Shown: positions 37,681 to 53,550 of the stretch, piece by piece | Layout of the letters: the number at the start of each line of letters is the position of its first letter | How positions within the stretch are numbered: the first letter of the stretch is position 1 | Origin: Patescibacteria group bacterium | GTDB lineage: Bacteria > Patescibacteriota > Minisyncoccia > Phycocordibacterales > UBA1550 | Direction of reading: 5' to 3' | Assembly (NCBI GenBank): GCA_038062675.1 | Contig: JBBTWP010000003.1 | Location: 37,934-101,933, forward strand | Length of the DNA: 64,000 nt | The notes under the pieces: model-generated | The model's database searches: none | Seen by the model: the letters and a program-made list of their open reading frames with translations, nothing else | What the model was told of the DNA's origin: nothing | Translations under genes and position numbers: made by a program

Positions 37681-37718
37681 AAAAAGCCTTCTTTGCGTTT
37701 TCGCAAGAAGGCTTTTTG
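37681..37718. terminator. Bidirectional terminator between the NUDIX gene and the converging DUF45 gene
   Basis: 'aaaaagccttctttgcg tttt cgcaagaaggcttttt'. Confidence 0.55.
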
Positions 37719-37894: not shown

Positions 37895-38617
37895 TTACAC
37901 AGCATACATCTCTAGTTTGTCCTTCACTTTTTCCCATTTTGGGTATTTTTCATCCAAAAATTGTAAGAACTTTTTATCATGGTTTTTATATTTTACATGA
38001 CACAATTCATGAGTAATAACGTAATCAATACAATCTTTAGGCACGTGTATTAATTTGGGGTTAAGGATAATCTTATCCTTATTCACAAAGCTCCCCCACC
38101 GACGTTTCATGTCTAGAAGTTCGAGTTTCGGCATATTTTTGTACTCAAAATTCTCCATTACTTCTTCAAATCGCTCTTGGAATACTCGAGTCGCTTTCTC
38201 TTTGTACCACTCAGAAATAAGTTTCTTAGTATGGTTGCTGTCCGACACAGCTCTTGTTGTGCGCACCAACAACACTCCCCTCAAAAGCGAGACCTCCTCC
38301 TCAAGCGCACGCTTCACAACAAGCTGGTGTTGTCGACCTAGGTAATAAAAACTTTCCCCGGAAACATACTCTTTTTTATGCTCTTTCCGCTGATATTTTC
38401 CAAAAAAAGCTAGTTGTTTTTGCATCCAGAACCACTTTTTTTTTAAAAAAATTTCTATACGATCCTCGCTTGCGCGATAAGGACATTTTACGCATATCCG
38501 CAAGTCTGGCATAATCGTAAGGCTCAATGTTTTTCTATTTTGTTTTACGAGATCATAACAATAGACAAAAGAGCCGTATATAAATTCTTTTCTTTCTGAA
38601 CTAGGAAAAGATTTCAT
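37895..38617 (-). CDS. DUF45/YgjP-like M48-family zinc metallopeptidase (R-M-associated)
   Basis: 'YVITHELCHVKYKNH' HExxH motif in a ~240-aa protein. This family is classically located directly downstream of hsdR. Confidence 0.65.
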   Translation of the reverse strand: MKSFPSSERKEFIYGSFVYCYDLVKQNRKTLSLTIMPDLRICVKCPYRASEDRIEIFLKKKWFWMQKQLAFFGKYQRKEHKKEYVSGESFYYLGRQHQLVVKRALEEEVSLLRGVLLVRTTRAVSDSNHTKKLISEWYKEKATRVFQERFEEVMENFEYKNMPKLELLDMKRRWGSFVNKDKIILNPKLIHVPKDCIDYVITHELCHVKYKNHDKKFLQFLDEKYPKWEKVKDKLEMYAV

Positions 38618-41600
38618 AATTATTTTCAGATAATAACATTACATTAGCGATGATTTTTTTCATATCCTCGTCGGAAAGTTCAATGCCTTTTTGTTTTTTC
38701 ACAACATCATACAGGTAATCATCAATTGTATTTATTATTCGCCTTTTAACATCAGCATTTTTATGCCAATCAACGATCGCTTCATGTTTTACAATGTTGA
38801 AAGTATCAATGATAACAGAAACAAAAACTTCTTCCTTTATTTCGAAACCTTTAAAGTTTCCACGAAGATTGCGGTAGAAAATATCAGATCCTTTGTTTTC
38901 TTGAATAAGTACAGGGATGCTATCGTCTTTCTTTTGAACAACATCATCCTTAGCTAACTTCATTTGCCGTAACGCTTCGACGTCCGCGAGTTTCCCGTCG
39001 CGCATTCTCTGCAATATCTCAGAAATTTTCTTTGAAAAACGATCGTAGAACTCAGGGTCAGTATCCATTTTCTCAGTGATTGTTTTTTGGGTTTGTGCAG
39101 CAATTGCCTCAGCTTTAGATTTATCGGACCCAAGGTCTTCAATTGCCTGTTCGAATTGCTTACGGTCAGTGATATTGATTTGCTTGGTTAAAAGCTCCAC
39201 TCCGCGTGCATCAACATATTTATCAAGAATATTTACAAGCGACTGTTTGTACTCAGAGAGATTAACCCGGTCTGCATATTTAAGGCTGGCGGTCTTGCGA
39301 AGTTCCATAAATTTCTTGAGCTCCATCTTATACATATCAAGATGCTTAAACTCATGCACAAAATCCTGAAGCACGAAACATTCATTAAGATTTCTTATAA
39401 ATGAGTTGAGTGACTTATAAAAAATCTCACGCTTTGGGGCATCATTAAGAAGTCGCAAAAATGCTTCGTCATCAGATGACCCCTTGATCTCCTTGAAAAC
39501 ATCGTGCACTAAGCTATAACTCTGTTCGAGTTCCTGCACCTTTTCAGCAACATCAATAAGTGCCCCCTTAACATCACTTTCATCATAATTCCCAAAAAGC
39601 TTCATCGCCATATTGATGTTCTTTGCATTCTCCGAGTAGTCAACAATATACCCCACCGTCTTTGGAAGTTTTTTATTTTCATAAAGACGATTCACCCTCG
39701 CAATTGCTTGGAGTAAATTGTGATCTTTTAAATCTTTGGCAAGATAAAGGACTGTGTTGCGCGGGGCGTCAAAGCCAGTTAAAAGTTTATCGACGACAAT
39801 AATCATCTCAATACCGTCCTCGTTGTGCTTAAAGCTGTCAATAACATCCTTCTCGTACTTCGCGACACTGCTGTGATGTTTGCGAACCCCATCAAGATAC
39901 CCCACAACTTCCTTTTTGTGTGTGTCTTCTTCGTCACCATCATCATGTTCATCAGAAATAACTACAGCAGTACGAACATTCCCTCGAGTTTCAAAAAACT
40001 TTTGAAACAATATGGCTGAGTATTTAGATGGTGCGACAATCTGCGCCTTGAGCCCGGTATTTTGGAAGTATTCAATGAAATGATTCTCAATATCATACGA
40101 AATTTCAATGATTCGTTGTGGATTATTCTTAATAATCTTCGTCCCCGCATATCTCTGCAATTCTTTTTTCTGCTTATCATTCAAATCCTGAGTAATACGC
40201 TCCATGTGCCGATCAATCTGTTCTTCATTTTGCGTCAAATCAACATATCTCCCTTCATAAATAAGTGGCAAAACAATTTTATCTGCAAGTGCATCGTCAA
40301 TCGTGTATGTATCAATATATCCACCGAACTTTCTCCAGCTTTCTTTCTCGCCTTTCATGAGAGGAGTGCCAGTAAAGCCTATGTAGCACGCATTTGGGAT
40401 AATACGATTCATTTCCAGGCTCGCAATACCACCCTGACTGCGGTGTGCCTCATCTATCAAAACAAATATATTTTGATCAGTATCAACAAGCCCTGTTTTC
40501 TTTTTTGCGGCAGACTCAAATTTATGCACAAGAGTAGTTATCACCGCAAGATTTTTTTCTTTAATAAGATCAAGGAGTTCCTGTCCGCTCATGGCCTGCA
40601 CCACCTCTTTTTTCAAATTACAATTCTTAAAGGTGTCTTTAATCTGTTTATCCAAGTCCTTACGATCAGTGACAATGATTACGCGCGGATTACTAATGTG
40701 TGGATTTTCAATAAGCGCCTTAACAAACATCACCATCGTGAGAGATTTACCAGACCCCTGTGTGTGCCAAACGAGCCCGCCGCGACGGCGAGGGGCACCC
40801 CTAACAACCTCTTTTTCTCCAATCCGCTCCATCATCTTATGAATTGCAAAATACTGTTGATAGCGCGACAGTTTTTTCACTCCTGCATCAAAAAGCGTGT
40901 AGTTTTTAACAAGGTCAAGAAGACGAGCAGGTTCAAAAAGCGCAACGATTCCCCTATCCTGCTCTGTCGGAAGTCGTTCAGTTTTTTGTACATGCCCTTC
41001 CGTATATCCGTTGAGATCAGTCAAAATCTGTTCGTAAACAGACCCATCAATCTTCTTCGCGATTAAAGCAATTACTCGCTTGTTTACGTCTTCCTCCGAA
41101 GTCCCTTTTTCCTTCCATCCCGCATAAAATTTATTCAGCGTCCCTGTTGTCCCATACAGTAGTTCTTTACTATTAGTCCCCACAAGAAGCTGTGCGTAAG
41201 TAAAGAGCTTTGGACAAAATTCGGAACCTTGGTTGCGATTCATTTGGTTCAAAGCTTCAACAACATCAACGCTTGATTTCTTGTTCTCAATAATCGCGAA
41301 CGGAATACCGTTCACAAAACACACAACATCGGGACGAATGTTCTGCTTCCCACTAACAGCAAACTCCGCCGTCACATGAAAAGCGTTGCTTTGGGGATTC
41401 TCAAAATCGATAAAACGGAAATTTTTTGACATTGTTTTTCCTCCCGCACTCACTTTAATGGTCTTGCCTCCGCTTGTCGGCATAATGATGTTAAAAATTT
41501 TCTGCGCGGTATCAATAAGCCCCTCGTATTGAATATGTTCGAGCTCATCAATTGCATCGCGCACATCTTTCTCACTAAATTTATATTCTCTCCCGCGAAC

Positions 41601-41783
41601 CTCATACCCATTGATATCCATGAGCTTTTTCTCGGCAATATCAGCAAGAATGAAATTGCTTGTGTCTCCACCACGCTGACGCAACGTCTCTTCAGCAGAA
41701 ATATATTTGTACCCCATTGCCAAAAGAAGCTCCAGTGCCGGAAGTTGAGATTGTTTTGCTTCGTCGAAGTGTACTTTTTCCAT
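38601..41783 (-). CDS. hsdR: Type I restriction enzyme R subunit
   Basis: 1060 aa with an HsdR_N nuclease region ('VVCFVNGIPFAIIENKKSS'). SF2 helicase motifs 'VWHTQGSGKSLTM' (Walker A) and 'VLIDEAHRSQ' (DEAH). Confidence 0.85.
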   Translation of the reverse strand: MEKVHFDEAKQSQLPALELLLAMGYKYISAEETLRQRGGDTSNFILADIAEKKLMDINGYEVRGREYKFSEKDVRDAIDELEHIQYEGLIDTAQKIFNIIMPTSGGKTIKVSAGGKTMSKNFRFIDFENPQSNAFHVTAEFAVSGKQNIRPDVVCFVNGIPFAIIENKKSSVDVVEALNQMNRNQGSEFCPKLFTYAQLLVGTNSKELLYGTTGTLNKFYAGWKEKGTSEEDVNKRVIALIAKKIDGSVYEQILTDLNGYTEGHVQKTERLPTEQDRGIVALFEPARLLDLVKNYTLFDAGVKKLSRYQQYFAIHKMMERIGEKEVVRGAPRRRGGLVWHTQGSGKSLTMVMFVKALIENPHISNPRVIIVTDRKDLDKQIKDTFKNCNLKKEVVQAMSGQELLDLIKEKNLAVITTLVHKFESAAKKKTGLVDTDQNIFVLIDEAHRSQGGIASLEMNRIIPNACYIGFTGTPLMKGEKESWRKFGGYIDTYTIDDALADKIVLPLIYEGRYVDLTQNEEQIDRHMERITQDLNDKQKKELQRYAGTKIIKNNPQRIIEISYDIENHFIEYFQNTGLKAQIVAPSKYSAILFQKFFETRGNVRTAVVISDEHDDGDEEDTHKKEVVGYLDGVRKHHSSVAKYEKDVIDSFKHNEDGIEMIIVVDKLLTGFDAPRNTVLYLAKDLKDHNLLQAIARVNRLYENKKLPKTVGYIVDYSENAKNINMAMKLFGNYDESDVKGALIDVAEKVQELEQSYSLVHDVFKEIKGSSDDEAFLRLLNDAPKREIFYKSLNSFIRNLNECFVLQDFVHEFKHLDMYKMELKKFMELRKTASLKYADRVNLSEYKQSLVNILDKYVDARGVELLTKQINITDRKQFEQAIEDLGSDKSKAEAIAAQTQKTITEKMDTDPEFYDRFSKKISEILQRMRDGKLADVEALRQMKLAKDDVVQKKDDSIPVLIQENKGSDIFYRNLRGNFKGFEIKEEVFVSVIIDTFNIVKHEAIVDWHKNADVKRRIINTIDDYLYDVVKKQKGIELSDEDMKKIIANVMLLSENNYEIFS

Positions 41784-41787
41784 ACAA

Positions 41788-42627
41788 TTATATTAATTTT
41801 TTCTTGCTTGGTGGTAAATAATTATCACCCGTCACGACCTTTTTACCCGTTTTTTCTTCTAATGCCACCCGCGCGTCTTTTGCAATTTTTCCGCCACGCT
41901 TTGCGGGTATCTTATTTTCCTCAAGACCTTTTGCTTCCATATTCTCCGCAATCTGGCGAGTAGAGAGCTCAGCGAGTGCGGTAAAGATGAGTTCAGCTTC
42001 TGACATATGATCACGTAAATTTGTAGACTTGCCCAAACCTTTTACTTTCTTATGATCTTGCACACCCAGATCGCTCCATTCGTGATGAATAATATTTGTA
42101 AGAATTGCATATCCTTTACCTTCTTCTACTCCGGCATCTTTCCAATAATCGGTAAGCTTGTTGCGAGTTTCCTGCCCCATCATTCTCTGCTGTATCCATT
42201 TATCACTTCGTCCGTGCTTCTTCCAATACTCGCGTGAACGATTGAGGGCAAGCTCTGGGTTCATCATTTCATCGATTCGTTCTTGCCCCACCTTTGCAAG
42301 CCATTGTTTAAACGGTTCTGCTTTTGGTGACGGAATAGATTGAATAATACGAAAAATACTCTGTAGATTAGCCACATCGGTAAGATAGCTTTTACCATCA
42401 AGAGACATCAGTTTCAGTTGTCCGATTTTCTCGGACAACTGACTTCCCTCGTCCTTAAGCTTTCTTTTGAGATCATCCCAGTATTTTCTAGGCCTTTCAC
42501 TTCCTGACAGGACTGCAACAACATCAATCACAGAAAAATACCACTGCTCGTGATGCCATGTTCTACGGACATCTTTTTCTTCAAAAATCGCTGGCGTAAT
42601 ATTCCTTTTTGTTTGTGGTTTTTTCAT
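41788..42627 (-). CDS. DinD / Bro-N-domain family protein (DNA-damage-inducible protein D-like)
   Basis: 'FEEKDVRRTWHHEQWYFSVIDVVAVLSGSERPRKYW...' plus C-terminal '...LRDHMSEAELIFTALAELSTRQ' parallel E. coli DinD ('FEEIRHY...EFWSARELAPLLGY' and 'DHMGSTELAANLFRATQ'). Start set at 'MKKPQTKRNIT' (42627) to avoid overlap with hsdS. Confidence 0.5.
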   Translation of the reverse strand: MKKPQTKRNITPAIFEEKDVRRTWHHEQWYFSVIDVVAVLSGSERPRKYWDDLKRKLKDEGSQLSEKIGQLKLMSLDGKSYLTDVANLQSIFRIIQSIPSPKAEPFKQWLAKVGQERIDEMMNPELALNRSREYWKKHGRSDKWIQQRMMGQETRNKLTDYWKDAGVEEGKGYAILTNIIHHEWSDLGVQDHKKVKGLGKSTNLRDHMSEAELIFTALAELSTRQIAENMEAKGLEENKIPAKRGGKIAKDARVALEEKTGKKVVTGDNYLPPSKKKLI

Positions 42628-42631
42628 AAAG

Positions 42632-43864
42632 TTATTTGTTAATTGATAATGTTTCAGGGGTTCTAATGGTGCCAGTGATGAGATTGTTGAGGAGGTACTT
42701 TTTCTGGTCCTTGAGGAGGGAGAGTTTATTTTCGAGTTTGGAGATTTCATTGTCTGCGGTAGTGAGGATGGTGGCAACTGCGGTTTGTTCCTCTTTTGAC
42801 GTTGGGATTACTATTTCAATTTCTGATAAATCAGTGCAATTTATCGCTGGGTAGTTTGAACCCGTGCACCTATCTATAACTTTATTAACAAATTCATCTG
42901 TATGTAATAAATAATATAAATAACGAGCAGAACCTTTTGCCCTGATTTGCGCATAGCCAGTCGATGCAACATAATCTCCTTTTTTATCAAAAAATAAATT
43001 ATTCTTCTGATAGGGCCTGACCACCTGAAAAATAATGTCTTCGTGCCTCAAAAGCCTCTGGGCTCGGCTAGGAGCTCCGGTTAAATTTATTATATTTTCT
43101 TTTAAAAGATTGCCGCGCTCAACACTTTCAAGGTCAATATATACAAAAGTATTCGGCAAGCTTTCACTTTTAGGATTCATTTCGCAAGCATCACCCAATC
43201 GAATACTCTCCCACTTATCCTTAAGCCAACCCAATCGCTTTTTCCCAGTAAGCAAATCCTGCATCAAACCTTTTTTGATTTCCTTTTTGATTTCAATTTT
43301 CTTCCTCAATTTTTCAATCGCCTTATCCCAAGCCTCCAGCACCGCCACAATCCGATTTTGTTCAGGCGTTGAAGGGAGTTTAATATTTACATGATTAAGT
43401 GAAGTGCCGCTAGTTAACGCTCTTGTTGTATATGAGCTTTTTTCTATTATTTCTTTACGTGCTAAATGAGTTTTGAAGTAATACTTAGAGTAACCAAGAG
43501 TCAGTGACTTTCCTTTTGGTCTTGCACGAAGAACAAAACCGCTAAAAACTGTGTCTTTGAAATCATCAAGTGCTACCGCGGAGAATCCTATTTCTTTAAG
43601 AGTTTCGGAAGTTCTAGTAAAGAACACATCTCCTTTTTTTACATTAAACCTATCGAGCTCGGATTTATTCACGTCAACTCTACCTAGAATAGTATTTGTG
43701 TATAAACCTCCACCTTTATAAACATCCGTATAATTAATTATTGGAGTACCGTGACCAAAGTAGTGTTTCTCTTTATTTAGTCCATTTTTAAATTCAAAAA
43801 TACTCGCAAGTTTTAATTCTTGCCACCCTTCAGGAATATTTTTTTGTAGTTGATTATTTTTCAT
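42632..43864 (-). CDS. hsdS: Type I restriction-modification specificity subunit (two TRDs)
   Basis: 410 aa; N-terminus 'IPEGWQELKLASIFEFKNG' and two TRD plus conserved-repeat units typical of HsdS. Confidence 0.8.
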   Translation of the reverse strand: MKNNQLQKNIPEGWQELKLASIFEFKNGLNKEKHYFGHGTPIINYTDVYKGGGLYTNTILGRVDVNKSELDRFNVKKGDVFFTRTSETLKEIGFSAVALDDFKDTVFSGFVLRARPKGKSLTLGYSKYYFKTHLARKEIIEKSSYTTRALTSGTSLNHVNIKLPSTPEQNRIVAVLEAWDKAIEKLRKKIEIKKEIKKGLMQDLLTGKKRLGWLKDKWESIRLGDACEMNPKSESLPNTFVYIDLESVERGNLLKENIINLTGAPSRAQRLLRHEDIIFQVVRPYQKNNLFFDKKGDYVASTGYAQIRAKGSARYLYYLLHTDEFVNKVIDRCTGSNYPAINCTDLSEIEIVIPTSKEEQTAVATILTTADNEISKLENKLSLLKDQKKYLLNNLITGTIRTPETLSINK

Positions 43865-44468
43865 GTTTTAGTCTCAATCTTTCTGGCAGAAACCAGTCAA
43901 TCTCTTCATCCGACAAAGTAAATTCTTCTCCTTGGACCTCTCCTCTTTTATTTAGTCTTTTCTGTGCTTCGGTATATTCTTTGGGTCCAGTTTGTGGAGC
44001 AAGATCACTGATGACCTGGTACTCTCTTTGCAACAAGTCTCTTCGAGAGATAATTTGGTCCGTGGGGACTGATTCACTCATAACATCTGCAATTAATGAA
44101 CGATAAGCATCTCTAAGTCCCATATACTTAAGAGCTGAGTTTTTATGCATAACTACTCGTTGTTCAAAGCTGAATGTAAGCTGGATGATAAGAAAAATTA
44201 CTTCAGCAACAGTAATCCCAGCACCTATATATGAAAACAAAAGAACTTCTGGCTTAGTAGCTTGGATGATCAATAAAATTAAAACAATAGAAACTAATAC
44301 AATGTTTACTATCTTAATAGTGAATACATTTTTTTCTTGATTTTCTGCAGCAACTTCTTGTACTTTGTGAGTAAAGACTGTACTTGCAAATGATTGTCTA
44401 ATGATTGAAAGATTTTCTTTGTTCATATATTTAAAATTTAGATCCATAAATTTCTCTCCACTTGCCAT
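43854..44468 (-). CDS. SLATT-like 2TM effector protein
   Basis: ~200 aa with exactly two adjacent TM helices ('FTIKIVNIVLVSIVLILLII', 'LLFSYIGAGITVAEVIFLIIQLTF') after a short N-terminal region. Polar C-terminal tail. Sits directly downstream of, and overlapping, the SMODS-like NTase. Start may be an internal ATG (44447 or 44426). Confidence 0.5.
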   Translation of the reverse strand: MASGEKFMDLNFKYMNKENLSIIRQSFASTVFTHKVQEVAAENQEKNVFTIKIVNIVLVSIVLILLIIQATKPEVLLFSYIGAGITVAEVIFLIIQLTFSFEQRVVMHKNSALKYMGLRDAYRSLIADVMSESVPTDQIISRRDLLQREYQVISDLAPQTGPKEYTEAQKRLNKRGEVQGEEFTLSDEEIDWFLPERLRLKHEK

Positions 44469-45321
44469 TAGCTGAGGAAGGCATTTCTCTCACCTCGTAA
44501 TCTATTGCCTCATTTGCAATATTAAAACCACGCAGTGCTTTGAATTGAAAATCTCCTTTCTTGTAAACATATTGACCACTACCTACTGCAAGCCAGTATG
44601 TTTTATCTTTGTCTTGGTTTTTAAGATATTCAAAAAAATCACGAGTCATCCAATCATAATAAAGATAAGAGTCATTTCTCTGAGCCCATGTTTTCAAGAA
44701 CTGGTATGCAAGAGTATCTATCAGTAAACCTCCCATTGGAACATCCCACTTATCTTTCCACGCTCTTGCCATTCTACATAAGTTCTTTAAATTTCCATTG
44801 AGTGTTTCGTTTGTTTTTCGAACCTCTTCAATTTCTGGTTTTGGGTTTGTTGTTTTCCAACTACCGCCATTATTTGAATCAGGATAAGTATAACTTCCAT
44901 TGTCATTCATGAAACAAGGAACAATTTCAAAACTGACACCATCTTCAAATTTAATTGCGACAATTTGTCCATCACCACTTATATGAGTTGTTGAGTAAGT
45001 ATTTTTTAATGAGTCTCTAACTTCCGAAAGCAGGGCAGATTGACCATTCCCTGAATGCTTATTGATTCTTTCATATACGGAATATGGGAGTTGAAATAAA
45101 ACATCAATATCACTAACATGGATATCAGTGTCTCTACCGTAAGATCCGACATACAGACTGTGAGCCGTATTTGATTCTGTGCTCCAAAAATCTTTATTCA
45201 ATTGTTTTGTGATTCTTTTATAGCGATACGAAATATCACCAGCAACACTTGAAGTGATACGGATGCTTGAACAAAAATTTTGGAATTTAGTTGATACACT
45301 CATAATCTTATTTTGAATCAC
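44431..45321 (-). CDS. SMODS / CD-NTase-like nucleotidyltransferase (pol-beta fold)
   Basis: 'LYVGSYGRDTDIHVSDIDVLF' is the [GS]-x(9-13)-DhD nucleotidyltransferase motif. A further acidic 'FEIVPC' strand lies downstream. ~296 aa. Confidence 0.6.
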   Translation of the reverse strand: MIQNKIMSVSTKFQNFCSSIRITSSVAGDISYRYKRITKQLNKDFWSTESNTAHSLYVGSYGRDTDIHVSDIDVLFQLPYSVYERINKHSGNGQSALLSEVRDSLKNTYSTTHISGDGQIVAIKFEDGVSFEIVPCFMNDNGSYTYPDSNNGGSWKTTNPKPEIEEVRKTNETLNGNLKNLCRMARAWKDKWDVPMGGLLIDTLAYQFLKTWAQRNDSYLYYDWMTRDFFEYLKNQDKDKTYWLAVGSGQYVYKKGDFQFKALRGFNIANEAIDYEVREMPSSANGKWREIYGSKF

Positions 45322-46006
45322 GCTTTTCTACCGCATCCTTTGCGCCACCAGGAAGACCATCATAAAAGGAATCTATTTCTTTCAACTCTGTTATCATCTT
45401 TTCAGCAATAAAATTGATGAGGCTGAATAACTTTATTACTCGATCCGTATCCTCGGTCAGATCTAACTCACCTGGGTGGACAGCGTTGTTCCCTGCGATA
45501 CGGAGTGCATCGAGAGATTTCTGAATAGCAGGATTCAATCCCTTCTTTACCAATGAAGCAATATCATCATTTATATTTTGTCCCTTTTCCCCAAGTTGAA
45601 CGCAGAGTTTCTGGAGAGCGAGACGCAAAATAGCAGCCGCTGAGCGAGGCGAATCACTAAGCACATTTGCTGCTTCTAAATAGTCATTCTGAATATCCTC
45701 GTTGAGATCGTTGTTCGGTTGAGCAACTTGAATTGTTCTCGGATAGACAATTGATGTTGCCAACCAGATGACATTACGACCACAATGCTCGCACTTTGAT
45801 ACAGACCATTCTTCATTAAAGTTTCCACTAAATGTGGTCATTCCGTAGATGTTTGACTGACGATTTACACCATACTGATTTCTCTCCGTATAAATATCAT
45901 CCACAGCGCTCAGGTGTGACCATCGCTGTTTTGCATAGACACCACAACGCGGACAGTGGAATTGCCCTTTTGCGTGTATTGGTGGAAAATGTTGTTCTTT
46001 GTTCAT
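45308..46006 (-). CDS. Zn-ribbon plus DUF4145 domain protein (R-M/Abi-associated)
   Basis: N-terminal 'CPRCG...CEHCG' zinc ribbon. C-terminal 'SAAAILRLALQKL...LRIAGNNAVHPGE' matches the DUF4145 helical module commonly appended to or beside type I R-M genes. Confidence 0.55.
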   Translation of the reverse strand: MNKEQHFPPIHAKGQFHCPRCGVYAKQRWSHLSAVDDIYTERNQYGVNRQSNIYGMTTFSGNFNEEWSVSKCEHCGRNVIWLATSIVYPRTIQVAQPNNDLNEDIQNDYLEAANVLSDSPRSAAAILRLALQKLCVQLGEKGQNINDDIASLVKKGLNPAIQKSLDALRIAGNNAVHPGELDLTEDTDRVIKLFSLINFIAEKMITELKEIDSFYDGLPGGAKDAVEKRDSK

Positions 46007-46010
46007 ATAT

Positions 46011-47525
46011 TTATTTAATCCCTAATTCCTTTAAATATTCGACCATTTGTTTTTCGAGTTTCTGAAGCTCGGGTTCGAGAGCTGCAAGCTCCTTTAGATT
46101 TGCTTGAATATCAACAGGAGCTTCCTCCTCGAAAGTATCCACATAGCGAGTGATGTTGAGGTTAAAATCGTTTTCTTCAATTTCTTTGAAATCTACTTTG
46201 CGTGAAAACTTTTCAACATCTTTACGCTTTTTGTAGGTGTCAAAAATCTTGGCAATATTTTCTTCAGTGAGGGTGTTCTTTGCCTTGCCAGATTTGAACT
46301 CTTTTGATGCTTCAATAAAAAGCACGTCCTTTTTCTTCTCGTTCGCACCGCCCTTTTCACGCGAGCGATCAATCACGAGGATAGCGACAGGAATACCTGT
46401 CGTCTGAAAGAGTCCCGCAGGTAGTCCAATCACTGTGTCAATAATATTCTCTTTAAGAAGCTGTGTGCGGATTTTCCCTTCTGAACCACCGCGGAAAAGC
46501 ACGCCGTGCGGTACAATCACCGCGACCCTGCCCGTCTTTGGTTTTGCGGTTTCAATCATGTGCGTAATAAAAGCAAAATCCCCTTTATCCTTTGGCGGAA
46601 CTCCGCGCCAAAAGCGATTGTACTTATCAGCCTCGGCATTTTCTGCACCCCACTTTTTCAAGGAAAATGGAGGGTTCGCCACGATTGTGTCGAAGTGCAT
46701 GAGCTGGTCATTTTCTACCAACCGCGGACTGTTAAGAGTGTCTCCCCATTCAATACGTGCGGAGTCCTTGCCGTGGAGAAACATATTCATACGAGCAAGC
46801 TGAAATGTTGAGCCTGTGGACTCTTGCCCGTAGAGTGCGTAGTTTTTTGAGCCCTGCTTTTCTACTTCTTCCCCAGCGAGGAGAAGGAGGTTCGCCGACC
46901 CGCAACACGGATCACAAATACGATCCCCTTCTTTAGGCTCAGCAAGTTTTGCAACCAATCGCGCAACACTCGTCACCGTGAAGAACTCTCCAGCTTTTTT
47001 ACCAGCATCCGAACCAAACTTTTCAATCATGTACATGTACGCATTTCCAATGACATCATCGCCAACATCCGAGAGGTCTATTTTGGCAAAGTCATTGATG
47101 AGGTGGCGAAGCATCTTGTTGCGTTGCTCAAGTTTCCCAAGTATTGATTCGGAGTTGAAGTCAACACTGAATACCCCTTCAAGCTTTTCTTTGTTCGCAT
47201 CTTCAATACGATGGAGCGCTTTGTTTATTTCCTCACCAATATTGTCTTCTTCAACTTTGCCATATAGATAGTCAAACGATGACTTTGGAGGAAGGTAAAA
47301 GCGGTCGAGCTTCATCTTTTCCTCAATACGCTTTTCGTCATCACCAAAACGCTCTTTGTATTCAGCATGTCTCTTTTTATTTAAATCGCTGAGATACTTC
47401 ATGAAAAGCATCGTCAACGCATAGTCTTTGTAGACACCACCATCCACACTACTACGAGAAGAATCAGCCGCTGCCCAGAGCGTCTTGTTGAGTTCTTCTT
47501 GTGTGTATTTTTTTTGAGTAGGCAT
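46011..47525 (-). CDS. hsdM: Type I restriction-modification N6-adenine DNA methyltransferase subunit
   Basis: Motif I 'DPCCGSANLLL' and motif IV 'IVANPPF'. N-terminal HsdM_N region. Confidence 0.85.
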   Translation of the reverse strand: MPTQKKYTQEELNKTLWAAADSSRSSVDGGVYKDYALTMLFMKYLSDLNKKRHAEYKERFGDDEKRIEEKMKLDRFYLPPKSSFDYLYGKVEEDNIGEEINKALHRIEDANKEKLEGVFSVDFNSESILGKLEQRNKMLRHLINDFAKIDLSDVGDDVIGNAYMYMIEKFGSDAGKKAGEFFTVTSVARLVAKLAEPKEGDRICDPCCGSANLLLLAGEEVEKQGSKNYALYGQESTGSTFQLARMNMFLHGKDSARIEWGDTLNSPRLVENDQLMHFDTIVANPPFSLKKWGAENAEADKYNRFWRGVPPKDKGDFAFITHMIETAKPKTGRVAVIVPHGVLFRGGSEGKIRTQLLKENIIDTVIGLPAGLFQTTGIPVAILVIDRSREKGGANEKKKDVLFIEASKEFKSGKAKNTLTEENIAKIFDTYKKRKDVEKFSRKVDFKEIEENDFNLNITRYVDTFEEEAPVDIQANLKELAALEPELQKLEKQMVEYLKELGIK

Positions 47526-47529
47526 GGAT

Positions 47530-48117
47530 TTATTTGGTGGTTAAATTTTTAAAAGTTGCGCTGATAATGTTTTTTTTGAGGTAGCTTTTTCGCTCAAGTA
47601 TCTCTTCTTGCCTTTTGATATTTTCGTGTAATGCGATGATTGATTTTTGTTTTATCATTGGCGGTATTGGGATATCTATGTCCTCTAAATTCTTTCGGAG
47701 GATACTTTGTATATATGACCCGCCCGTGACAACCTGTGAAATCTTTTTTTGCCCATCATCTGAGTTCAGATACAAAGAAATGTATTTGGGTAATACGGTC
47801 ACATCTTTGATGCGGATAATGTGTACTGATGACGAAGCGATAACATTCGTTTCGTCGAGCGCAAAAACAGTTGCACGAAAAGAGCCCAATCCTGAACCCC
47901 TAGAAACAAGGAGTACGTCGTTGTATTCCAAATATGACATAGCTCGAGGGGGTTCCGAAGAAATCCGAGCGAACTCGCCGGTCTCTGTAATATCCCGCGC
48001 ACTATCCACATTCGTTGCTTGCAGTACGAAAACCTTGCCGTTTGGGTCCTTTTCGACAGGACTGCGGAAAGTGTACCCCGAAATGACCTGAGCGATATCC
48101 TGTACTTTCTTTTGCAT
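47530..48117 (-). CDS. Half-size HsdS-like specificity protein (single TRD)
   Basis: 195 aa; 'IAQVISGYTF' TRD start and the conserved HsdS central/C-terminal helix 'IIALHENIKRQEEILERK'. First gene of the operon. Confidence 0.55.
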   Translation of the reverse strand: MQKKVQDIAQVISGYTFRSPVEKDPNGKVFVLQATNVDSARDITETGEFARISSEPPRAMSYLEYNDVLLVSRGSGLGSFRATVFALDETNVIASSSVHIIRIKDVTVLPKYISLYLNSDDGQKKISQVVTGGSYIQSILRKNLEDIDIPIPPMIKQKSIIALHENIKRQEEILERKSYLKKNIISATFKNLTTK

Positions 48118-48235
48118 GTAGAGAGTATACTGTGTTTTATGTAAAATTGCAACAAGCTGGCGACTTTGAGCAACAAAAAGGGCGAGTGTGTCAATTTTTT
48201 TCTATAGCTCAAGTGTATAAAGTATTCTGTGATTA

Positions 48236-48287: not shown

Positions 48288-48504
48288 TATTTTTCAAAAT
48301 AGCAAAAAAATACTTAAAACAAAGGGTAAATGGCGCCAAGGATTCGATCCTTGGCGCCATTTATTATTACACCACACCAACCCCCTGTACTCCCAACCTC
48401 ATTGCGATATACTCAATTAAGAGCCTGTCTCGACAGGCTCTTAATTGCAAAAGGCATCATTATGTTTCTTTTGCTACATAACACATTCTAGAATAATAAA
48501 TCTT

Positions 48505-49260
48505 ATGAAAAAAATTATCATCTCAGGTATTGCAGTCGGTATTATGGCAACGTCGTCAGTTGTTTTTGCAACCACTACGGTTGCGACGTCGACTGCAACA
48601 ACCACACCACAAGCGAACACGTGGAAAGATACGCGTGACGAACAAAAAGATTTCCGCAAGGATCTCAAAAACGAAAAGAAGGAACTCCAAAAGGATTTCC
48701 GTAAGGAAGACAAGGAAATGAAGAGGGACGACCGCGAAGACAGAAAAGAACTTCGAGGAGTACTCAAAGAGGAGCGGAAGGAGGCCCGTGAGGGTAAGCG
48801 CTTCCGCACCGCAACAACTACAAGCACGTCTACTGCACAAAGACGAAATGACGCCAATGAGCGAATGGAGGAACGCCGCAAAAAGGCTGGCATTATGCGA
48901 GCAGAATACCTTGTGAAACGCCTCGAGCGCAATGTCGCAATGCTTGAAAACTATGCAGTGAGAATTGAAACGAGACTCGCCACACTCTTTGGGAAGGGTT
49001 TTGACGTCACCAAGGCGCGCACAAACCTTGCCCTTGCACGCACCAAGATTGCTGATGCAAAGAATAAAGTTGCTATCGTAAAGACAGGTGTCACAGCAGC
49101 CACAACAGCACCGAATGTTAACGAGGCACTCAAAGCACTTAAGCCGAAAATAAAAGCTGCTGAGAATGCGACAAAAGACGCACAGCACGCACTCAAAAGC
49201 GCAATGAATCTTCGCTTTGCAGGAATTGCAACTTCAACCGCAACCACGACAGCTCAATAG
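48505..49260 (+). CDS. Secreted Lys/Arg/Glu-rich coiled-coil protein, hypothetical
   Basis: Signal peptide 'MKKIIISGIAVGIMATSSVVFA'. Thr-rich linker then charged repeats 'KDFRKDLKNEKKELQKDFRKEDKEMKRDDREDRKELR'. Confidence 0.5.
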   Translation: MKKIIISGIAVGIMATSSVVFATTTVATSTATTTPQANTWKDTRDEQKDFRKDLKNEKKELQKDFRKEDKEMKRDDREDRKELRGVLKEERKEAREGKRFRTATTTSTSTAQRRNDANERMEERRKKAGIMRAEYLVKRLERNVAMLENYAVRIETRLATLFGKGFDVTKARTNLALARTKIADAKNKVAIVKTGVTAATTAPNVNEALKALKPKIKAAENATKDAQHALKSAMNLRFAGIATSTATTTAQ

Positions 49261-52302: not shown

Positions 52303-53550
52303 TTAAAACGACGCCGAACCTGGCATTGCCTCTATTTCTACTACTACTACCGGCTTCTCCATAACTTCGCCTGACAAGGCGTAGATGTAATACGTTTGTG
52401 CCGTCTTGCGCATCCCCGGAATGCGCAAAAGATCTAAAGCGAAATGACCTCGCACTGCGCCGTCACTGCCTACTGCGCTGTAGCTCGGCGCGTACACCGT
52501 AAAGCGAGTGACAAATCCGTCGATGCTTCCAAGTATTACCAGCGTAATTGGGATCACTGAGCTTGGTGCAGCCTCAAGTTGTTTTAACTTCTCGTCACGA
52601 TTCGTTTGCAGCCAAGCTTGTACATTTTTGTCGTCACGACTCTGCGCCTCGATGCGCGCGCGCCAGGCATCCGGCGTTAACTGCTCGGATACGAGTGGTT
52701 TCAAACAAAACGCGCCGTAAAGCGGAATAGCCGTATCGTTGCGTAGTGTGTTTGTGAGTGCGACGGTGAGCGCAATGCCAAGCGCGCTCGGCGATGATGG
52801 AGATTCCTTCAACGCCCGGTAATTCGGCAGCGGATCACCCGGCAATGGACTCATGAGTTGCGACATTGCTCCCGCATTTGCCGCACGTCCAGATTGGTCC
52901 GCACCCGTTCCTTTCGGAAAAGTGATTTCCGTGTTGAGCGGACCAAATATCTGGTCCTGCAGCGCAACGTAAAATGAATAGCGACCGGCCCGCCAGGGAA
53001 AGCCCAATCGAGTGCGAGCGTCGAAGACCTCGTACTTGGCATAACTCCCCTCGGGAGTCTCCAGCGGTTCACCCGGCAATGATACCGGTGCTCTCGCGAC
53101 ATAGTTGTCCTCTTGTTCGATCGCTTTATTCGCATAGGCAATATTTCGTTCGTGATCGATACCGATCACCGTCGCATGTTTTGCGAAATTCGCTTTGCCG
53201 CCCTGGTCGAAGGTTCTGTGTTCAACCGCAAGTATCGGCAAACGGTCACGCAAAACACCGTCAACTTTTTTTGGTGCGTCGATGAAAATTCCGAGTATAT
53301 TTTTGTCCGACAATACATCTCCTATTGCTTCGGCTTCATCCGAGAAATCTCGATAGTATTGATCGTCGGAGATGTTGATAATTTTGCTCGTCATGGGTGT
53401 ATTGCCTCCTGCATCGGCAAATTCGTTTTTATCTGCTCTGTTCTCACACACACTCCACGCTGCGCCCAAAACAAGAATGCTCGTAAGCACAATTCCGCGC
53501 CACAGACGCAATCGCACTGGTTTTTGTTGCAAGCTCAGCTGAATTCGCAT
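52303..53550 (-). CDS. Secreted hypothetical protein (GC-richer than surroundings)
   Basis: 415 aa with an N-terminal signal/TM 'LRLWRGIVLTSILVLGAAWSV'. No motif I recognise. Sequence is visibly more GC-rich than neighbours. Confidence 0.45.
   Translation of the reverse strand: MRIQLSLQQKPVRLRLWRGIVLTSILVLGAAWSVCENRADKNEFADAGGNTPMTSKIINISDDQYYRDFSDEAEAIGDVLSDKNILGIFIDAPKKVDGVLRDRLPILAVEHRTFDQGGKANFAKHATVIGIDHERNIAYANKAIEQEDNYVARAPVSLPGEPLETPEGSYAKYEVFDARTRLGFPWRAGRYSFYVALQDQIFGPLNTEITFPKGTGADQSGRAANAGAMSQLMSPLPGDPLPNYRALKESPSSPSALGIALTVALTNTLRNDTAIPLYGAFCLKPLVSEQLTPDAWRARIEAQSRDDKNVQAWLQTNRDEKLKQLEAAPSSVIPITLVILGSIDGFVTRFTVYAPSYSAVGSDGAVRGHFALDLLRIPGMRKTAQTYYIYALSGEVMEKPVVVVEIEAMPGSASF

Follow-up and report, generated by a model that had tools for sequence, protein, structure and literature searches.

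We analysed a stretch of 64,000 nucleotides (hereafter, the window) from a Patescibacteria group bacterium (NCBI GenBank assembly GCA_038062675.1, contig JBBTWP010000003.1), focusing on two minus-strand genes that lie between hsdM and hsdS of a type I restriction-modification (R-M) operon. One encodes a cGAS/DncV-like nucleotidyltransferase (CD-NTase; NTase below) and the other a SLATT_4 protein with two predicted transmembrane helices. An earlier note on this DNA, made from its letters and open reading frames (ORFs), had proposed that the pair is a SMODS NTase with a SLATT effector and had placed three further genes around it. Family searches bore out the labels of all five minus-strand ORFs (SMODS/CD-NTase, SLATT, DUF4145, HsdM and HsdS) at the ends given for them, as well as the position of the pair. 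The whole unit is larger than these five genes – a single nine-gene minus-strand operon, running from 48117 to 37895, that encodes in order a half-size HsdS, HsdM, a homologue of the defence protein RAZR, the CD-NTase, SLATT_4, a full-length HsdS, a Bro-N/PDC-S13 protein, HsdR and a YgjP-like peptidase.

A CD-NTase and a SLATT_4 protein at the hsdM/hsdS junction

The two genes of the pair, with protein lengths in amino acids (aa), are as follows:

44431..45303, minus strand: CD-NTase of the SMODS family, 290 aa; Pfam SMODS PF18144 at E 1.1e-51 over the whole model; PADLOC CBASS cyclase PDLC00786 at E 2.9e-137

43854..44426, minus strand: SLATT_4 two-transmembrane effector, 190 aa; Pfam SLATT_4 PF18186 at E 6.5e-31; PADLOC CBASS '2TM' effector at E 3.5e-38

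These Pfam matches are the ones that the earlier note had suggested seeking over the longer spans 44431..45321 and 43854..44468. We moved the NTase start from the GTG at 45321 to the ATG at 45303 (MSVSTKF) because 20 of 20 aligned homologues begin there and because the public annotation of identical contigs likewise has a protein of 290 aa. The SLATT gene likewise starts at 44426 (MNKENLS), not at 44468.

Consistent with the NTase being a CD-NTase, its sequence and model combine a predicted pol-beta fold with a GS...[DE]x[DE]...[DE] active site. The motif quoted in the earlier note, GSYGRDTDIHVSDIDVLF, is present in the NTase ORF, and the active-site residues (G53-S54, D65, D67 and E126) are invariant in 21 homologues. 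An AlphaFold2 model (predicted local distance difference test score, pLDDT, 87.8) has its best Protein Data Bank (PDB) fold match in Pseudomonas aeruginosa CdnD (6p82; TM-score 0.80), and the top 50 PDB fold matches in a Foldseek search are all CD-NTases, with CdnB, CdnC, CdnE and DncV following CdnD. A profile of the NTase family finds CdnD at E 1e-15 and aligns D65/D67 with CdnD D62/D64, the residues mutated in 6P8J, while E126 aligns with the third acidic residue of CdnD. The structure prediction that the earlier note had called for thus returned the CD-NTase fold, with GS, DxD and third acid aligned. The 290-aa protein is a bare catalytic core without an extra domain, and its ratio of nonsynonymous to synonymous substitution rates (dN/dS, 0.03-0.05) indicates strong purifying selection.

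The SLATT protein scores 107.7 bits against a Pfam threshold of 27 and 112.8 against an NCBIfam cut-off of 55. Two hydropathy peaks correspond to predicted transmembrane helices at about residues 34-56 (44259-44327) and 61-85 (44172-44246), and the C-terminal domain is helical, predicted to be cytoplasmic and strongly conserved. Its AlphaFold2 model is all-helical, with two long helices (pLDDT 83). Two predicted transmembrane helices, a conserved cytoplasmic region and a score above the gathering threshold support its assignment to SLATT_4. As with the NTase, dN/dS (0.036) indicates strong purifying selection. Pseudogenisation of the pair was considered and rejected, with intact ORFs, invariant catalytic residues and dN/dS of about 0.04.

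The SLATT_4 gene begins 4 nt past the NTase stop. The earlier note had supposed that homologues would pair up elsewhere, and they do: in about 70 of the 80 related loci compared (the best 80 of 224 relatives found in a scan of one genome per species), the gene that directly follows the NTase is SLATT, across many phyla and mostly outside R-M operons. Because Pfam and PADLOC scans of the nine operon proteins found no Cap2/Cap3, HORMA/TRIP13, type IV or other ancillary gene of a cyclic oligonucleotide-based antiphage signalling system (CBASS), we assign the pair to type I; by gene content, the NTase and SLATT_4 are predicted to be a minimal type I CBASS. SLATT4 is counted among CBASS effector classes (PMC12480259), and a SLATT_4 type I CBASS appears in a table of verified antiphage systems on lactococcal plasmids (PMC11381338).

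The pair in type I R-M operons of other genomes

In the 80 related loci (these and the further loci compared are labelled L below), Pfam annotation of the genes immediately upstream of the pair (n=72) gave N6_Mtase five times, Methylase_S three times and HSDR_N once, and annotation of those immediately downstream (n=69) gave Methylase_S five times and HSDR_N twice; the other immediate neighbours are a typical defence-island and mobile-element mix. Embedding was rescanned with hsd queries from six backbones after the addition of ten metagenomic contexts. Fourteen informative loci have an NTase with 71% or higher identity to that of the window, and 12 of these 14 lie inside type I R-M operons: ten at hsdM|hsdS, the placement for which the earlier note had proposed a neighbourhood survey, and two at hsdS|hsdR, with L004 and L091 as the two non-embedded loci. 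More distant NTase relatives have hsd genes on both flanks in 4 of 46 cases (odds ratio 63, Fisher p 1e-7, values that are uncorrected for relatedness and so descriptive only). A neighbour-joining tree places the nine hsdM|hsdS-embedded loci with NTase identity of at least 76% in one clade (one of them, L003, being only partly informative); L006, embedded at the same junction, branches outside it. An Arcobacter plasmid provides a further case, a type I R-M operon that contains a more remote NTase-SLATT pair (43% identical).

Three non-embedded relatives, L004, L091 and L008 (73%, 75% and 68% NTase identity, respectively), keep both genes. Upstream of the pair, non-embedded relatives have intergenic sequence that resembles a promoter or a ribosome-binding site, whereas embedded ones have none. 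Further NTase-like genes accompany some non-embedded relatives: a 435-aa second NTase with SMODS and AGS_C domains lies directly upstream of the pair in L091 (4633-7397), on an element with a serine recombinase, and L033 and L029 each have an NTase-like match downstream of SLATT.

The R-M operons that carry the pair are not of one kind. Across ten embedded loci NTase identity is 66-96%, but the HsdM proteins form at least five groups with only 24-37% identity between them, and HsdR proteins of different backbone groups are 23-33% identical and differ in domain architecture. The window and L085 share 90% identity in the NTase and 92% in SLATT, but 35% in HsdM and 27% in HsdR; the window and L006 share 84% in HsdM and 80% in HsdR, but 71% in the NTase. 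Since near-identical cassettes sit in unrelated HsdM/HsdR backbones, we conclude that cassette and backbone have different histories and that the cassette moved between operons.

The insertion position varies as well (hsdM|hsdS, hsdS|hsdR and an R-M-[pair]-S arrangement), and several carrier loci adjoin recombinases, conjugation genes or toxin-antitoxin modules. The junction 'TAA AATT ATG' is common to L001, L002, L003 and L085, while elsewhere among the embedded loci the genes are 3 nt apart or overlap by ATGA. A site-specific cassette boundary was rejected, as the junctions are non-uniform and the 4-nt spacing looks like operon packing, not a recombination site. Compared with the window, L002 (1410-2880) has an NTase that is 81% identical but a SLATT that is 44% identical, an effector swap within the cassette; the corresponding values for L003 are 79% and 90%.

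The host operon and its other genes

The remaining genes of the operon and the elements at its boundaries are:

47530..48117, minus strand: half-size HsdS, 195 aa, one target-recognition domain; Pfam Methylase_S at E 1.7e-08; PADLOC type I specificity subunit at E 1.2e-18

46011..47525, minus strand: HsdM, 504 aa; HsdM_N and N6_Mtase at E 6.7e-101; NPPF motif in the translation

45308..46006, minus strand: RAZR/PD-T7-4 homologue, 232 aa; Pfam DUF4145 at E 1.6e-16; PADLOC PD-T7-4 at E 6.1e-81

42632..43864, minus strand: full-length HsdS, 410 aa, two target-recognition domains; Methylase_S in two stretches at E 4.9e-26; PADLOC specificity subunit at E 1.1e-76

41788..42627, minus strand: Bro-N domain protein with PDC-S13 match, 279 aa, nested between hsdS and hsdR; Pfam Bro-N at E 3.7e-10; PADLOC PDC-S13 at E 4.8e-119

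38601..41783, minus strand: HsdR, 1060 aa; HSDR_N, SWI2_SNF2 and T1R_D3-like domains; GSGKS, DEAH and D...ExK-type (D...ENK) motifs in the translation

37895..38617, minus strand: YgjP-like zinc metallopeptidase, 240 aa, last gene of the operon, overlapping the hsdR end by 17 nt; Pfam YgjP-like at E 2.7e-52

48124..48152, minus strand: promoter-like site TTGCAA-17-TATACT from a consensus scan, directly upstream of the first operon gene (half-HsdS)

48327-48363, minus strand: hairpin with a 17-bp perfect stem, 8 GC pairs and a T-rich tail, upstream of the promoter-like site

37681..37717, minus strand: GC-rich hairpin followed by a T-run, read directly from the sequence; the scan lists its plus-strand version at 37692-37707

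The R-M system looks intact. HsdM scores 276 bits against TIGR00497 (cut-off 242.75) and HsdR 487 bits against TIGR00348 (cut-off 284.55), and the presence of HsdM, HsdS and HsdR with their catalytic motifs supports, at the sequence level, assignment to type I. The operon has two specificity genes – the half-HsdS before hsdM and the full-length HsdS after the CBASS pair – and the layout of half-S followed by hsdM recurs in L006, the P0014 locus and the Arcobacter plasmid CP146529 (L096). The YgjP-like gene overlaps or directly follows hsdR in most R-M operons examined (L001, L006, L087, L092 and L093), whatever the backbone family.

This R-M operon appears to host three nested anti-phage modules at two of its junctions: RAZR and the NTase-SLATT pair at hsdM/hsdS and Bro-N/PDC-S13, a candidate module, at hsdS/hsdR. 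The RAZR alignment to the PADLOC PD-T7-4 model spans positions 3-208 of 211. The protein has a Cys4 zinc ribbon (C18, C21, C72 and C75) and a DUF4145 HEPN-like RNase domain, and its R169/H177 align to the catalytic R146/H154 of E. coli RAZR (PDB 9y9c, E 1.2e-48). We therefore take the 45308..46006 product to be a RAZR/PD-T7-4 homologue and, by prediction, an independent nested defence gene. RAZR, the new name of PD-T7-4, acts by itself in abortive infection and combines a Cys4 zinc finger with a HEPN-like DUF4145 RNase; the E. coli protein assembles around phage ring proteins, for instance the T7 portal, as a 24-mer that then cleaves RNA (PMC13017515). The window homologue shares the zinc ribbon, HEPN domain and catalytic R/H with RAZR (PMC13017515; PDB 9y9c) but has about 21 extra residues in the zinc-ribbon region and is nested in an R-M operon. 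A 2013 table already lists DUF4145 with zinc ribbons 'in operon with R-M' (PMC3710099). The Bro-N start at 42627 was taken from public gene calls. A 45%-identical Bro-N/PDC-S13 homologue lies 3' of hsdR in L023 (15471-16300), a CBASS-carrying R-M operon of a Patescibacteria metagenome-assembled genome (MAG).

The genes are tightly packed. With corrected starts, six of the eight junctions consist of TAA, exactly 4 nt and ATG, and only two are overlaps: the hsdS 5' end overlaps the SLATT 3' end by 11 nt, and hsdR and ygjP overlap by 17 nt. The earlier note had described the genes as overlapping; with the NTase and SLATT starts corrected, most of them do not overlap. The 4-nt spacing looks like a termination-reinitiation type of operon packing, possibly typical of such small genomes. 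There is no obvious Shine-Dalgarno sequence at the 4-nt junctions of the operon, and several junctions of L085 and L087 have the same spacing.

Within the operon, a terminator hairpin is found only after the last gene. The hairpin there (37681..37717) is likely a bidirectional terminator between the operon and a convergent NUDIX gene, and the one at 48327-48363 probably closes the preceding gene and insulates the operon from upstream transcription. The promoter assignment is tentative because promoter-like sites were not enriched over shuffles in the scan. GC content is 34-41% across the island (window 38000-46000). The housekeeping genes that flank it – nusA, pyrophosphatase and NUDIX to one side, trigger factor and clpP to the other – are at about 45-50%, a contrast that fits the island having been acquired horizontally as a whole. 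Identical contigs come from groundwater metagenomes. Two ORFs in the vicinity have no Pfam match: one beside the island (48445-49260; 271 aa), whose N-terminus is signal-like and rich in Thr/Ala and whose repeat region is highly charged and K/E/R-rich, and one near it (52303-53550; 415 aa).

Possible reasons for the nesting and comparison with known systems

We consider it likely that the pair is an autonomous type I CBASS that lacks its own promoter region and is carried in the type I R-M operon as one layer of a stacked defence. Four defences would then be made from one transcript, expressed from the hsd promoter. The type I R-M system (half-S, M, S and R, with the YgjP-like protein as an accessory) would cut unmodified incoming DNA, and RAZR would sense assembled phage ring proteins, the portal for example, and degrade RNA. 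An infection cue would lead the CD-NTase to make a cyclic oligonucleotide; this nucleotide would activate SLATT_4, which would permeabilise the inner membrane by forming pores and so abort the infection. Bro-N/PDC-S13 would be a further candidate defence. On this account, nesting would serve the co-expression and co-transfer of a layered defence, not biochemical coupling to R-M, and the comparative pattern across loci speaks for an abortive-infection module that is autonomous and is expressed and transferred together with its host operon.

Several points weigh against this account. The NTase scores 109.4 bits (E 2.4e-31) against the NCBIfam equivalog CBASS_cyclase_b (NF041117), under its 200-bit cut-off, suggesting a relative and not a member of that family; its predicted membership of the wider CD-NTase/SMODS group is unaffected. 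The SLATT_4 model had a best E of 0.54 in the Foldseek search of the PDB, and a sequence search of the PDB also gave no match; because there is no solved structural relative, ligand binding and pore formation are proposed from family annotation only. The host is an uncultured Patescibacteria MAG. Finally, embedding of the close relatives, with a nine-member clade always at hsdM|hsdS, is tighter than mere island clustering and could reflect functional dependence.

Such dependence has a precedent in PrrC, which is nested in the EcoprrI type I R-M locus and activated when T4 Stp inhibits EcoprrI (PMC12707154), and which is almost exclusively embedded in type I R-M (bioRxiv 10.1101/2024.01.29.577857). 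By analogy, the CD-NTase might monitor the type I R-M complex and fire SLATT only when restriction fails, the cue being inhibition by an anti-restriction protein (Ocr or ArdA, for instance), an enzyme stalled in translocation, or the DNA products of that enzyme. Embedding that is specific to one lineage (12/14 close against 4/46 distant loci), the monophyly of the nine hsdM|hsdS loci and the lack of independent promoter space all fit this idea. The lineage keeps so closely to R-M operons that we retain this reading as a possibility, though an unlikely one. A specific protein contact would need to persist across at least five backbones that hold the same cassette (NTase 74-90% identical) and show the HsdM and HsdR divergence given above; the insertion position varies; the non-embedded sisters L004, L091 and L008 retain both genes, and the 290-aa NTase has no extra domain. 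Near-exclusive embedding of the PrrC kind is a property of the close loci and of the clade (9/9) but not of the wider family, and partnership with one R-M enzyme family was not found, as cassette and backbone phylogenies are discordant. A narrower version, which we regard as improbable, is that the hsdM|hsdS clade is a dedicated back-up for type I restriction, its CD-NTase being activated in response to conditions of the R-M machinery such as anti-restriction blockage, stalled translocation, or released DNA or ATP-turnover products. If true, a minimal type I CBASS would have a defined trigger, and the PrrC principle a second case, one that works through nucleotide signalling.

The same phylogenetic discordance can be read as hitch-hiking, in which a toxic cassette uses R-M operons as a safe harbour and vehicle, or itself stabilises these operons in the manner of an addiction module, without defence synergy. 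Co-location would then reflect merely where insertions are tolerated and spread. The recombinases, conjugation genes and toxin-antitoxin modules beside several carrier loci and the low GC of the island are in keeping with this, as is the finding that type I R-M junctions take many unrelated inserts (bioRxiv 10.1101/2024.01.29.577857). Hitch-hiking leaves the rarity of the lineage elsewhere unexplained, however, and strong purifying selection on both genes together with phage defence by a related SLATT_4 CBASS (PMC11381338) makes a defence role simpler. It overlaps the autonomous, co-transferred CBASS that we prefer except on whether co-location is beneficial, and we judge it quite improbable.

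That the Zn-ribbon/DUF4145 protein is a sensor or regulator of the pair, as the earlier note had suggested from its position immediately upstream of the NTase (4-nt spacer, same operon), is very improbable: it is a full-length RAZR/PD-T7-4 homologue that keeps the catalytic R and H, RAZR defends alone (PMC13017515), tblastn gave zero matches to it in the 80 related CBASS loci, homologues are also absent from the ten nearest metagenomic loci, where hsdM or hsdS adjoins the NTase directly, and the two plasmid-borne homologues inspected (n=2) lie outside both R-M and CBASS contexts. We therefore rejected it as a conserved CBASS sensor.

The nesting of defences in type I R-M operons is itself already described, and the earlier note's claim of an undescribed arrangement was for that reason overstated. 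A 'guilt-by-embedding' survey found known defences commonly embedded in type I R-M, BREX, DISARM and Hma systems, 96.7% of them in the same orientation, and PDC candidates, including PDC-S13, were defined by embedding in R-M/BREX/DISARM operons (bioRxiv 10.1101/2024.01.29.577857). Individual cases have been tested: besides PrrC, these are DarTG2 between hsdS and hsdR in the enteropathogenic E. coli RRDM island (PMC12255303) and TgvAB in the type I R-M operon of Vibrio cholerae VPI-2 (PMC11411939). In the accessible parts of the survey's preprint text and 11 supplements the terms 'cbass', 'PD-T7-4', 'PDC-S13' and 'SLATT' are absent (bioRxiv 10.1101/2024.01.29.577857), and our literature search found no paper naming a CBASS nested in a type I R-M operon or an R-M-resident CBASS lineage. 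Parts and nesting style are thus known, and what is modestly new is a comparative observation: one CBASS lineage resident in type I R-M.

The locus is a compact four-layer defence operon of known parts and known organisation style in a small-genome Patescibacteria bacterium. A CBASS lineage that lives almost only in type I R-M operons, yet hops between unrelated backbones, offers a natural test of why defences nest, since co-regulation, co-transfer and true coupling could each be examined through it. As a two-gene system, it also allows the trigger of minimal CBASS cyclases to be probed with and without an R-M host.

The nearest solved CD-NTase, P. aeruginosa CdnD (PDB 6P82/6P8J), has the same fold as the NTase model, a similar size (300 aa) and an aligned GS and DxD; the NTase is only 22-23% identical to it, however, and has Glu (E126) in place of Asp as third acidic residue. 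CdnD belongs to a type III CBASS with HORMA/TRIP13 regulation and a nuclease effector, none of which is present in the window operon. Closer in gene content is the Lactococcus system pUCCL631_167/168 (PMC11381338). Both are two-gene systems of a CD-NTase and a PF18186 SLATT_4 protein of about 190 aa, without Cap2/Cap3 or HORMA/TRIP13, and both presumably act by abortive infection through membrane damage. The lactococcal cyclase has 408 aa and an AGS-C sensor domain, whereas that of the window is the bare 290-aa core, and the lactococcal system is plasmid-borne and stand-alone, whereas the window pair lacks its own promoter region and sits between hsdM/RAZR and hsdS.

With PrrC-EcoprrI, a type IC R-M locus, the pair shares the nesting of an abortive-infection module in type I R-M and, in its closest clade, near-constant embedding. 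PrrC is a single ABC-ATPase/nuclease that is kept latent by binding the R-M enzyme and freed by a phage anti-restriction peptide, whereas the window module is a nucleotide-signalling pair whose wider family is mostly not embedded and whose cassette does not co-evolve with the R-M backbone. The embedded defences of the survey, DarTG2 and TgvAB likewise have an independent defence placed between hsd genes on the same strand, and the Bro-N gene of the window matches one of the survey's own candidates, PDC-S13. DarTG2 and TgvAB are other systems, nested at hsdS/hsdR; the window has three modules at two junctions of one operon.

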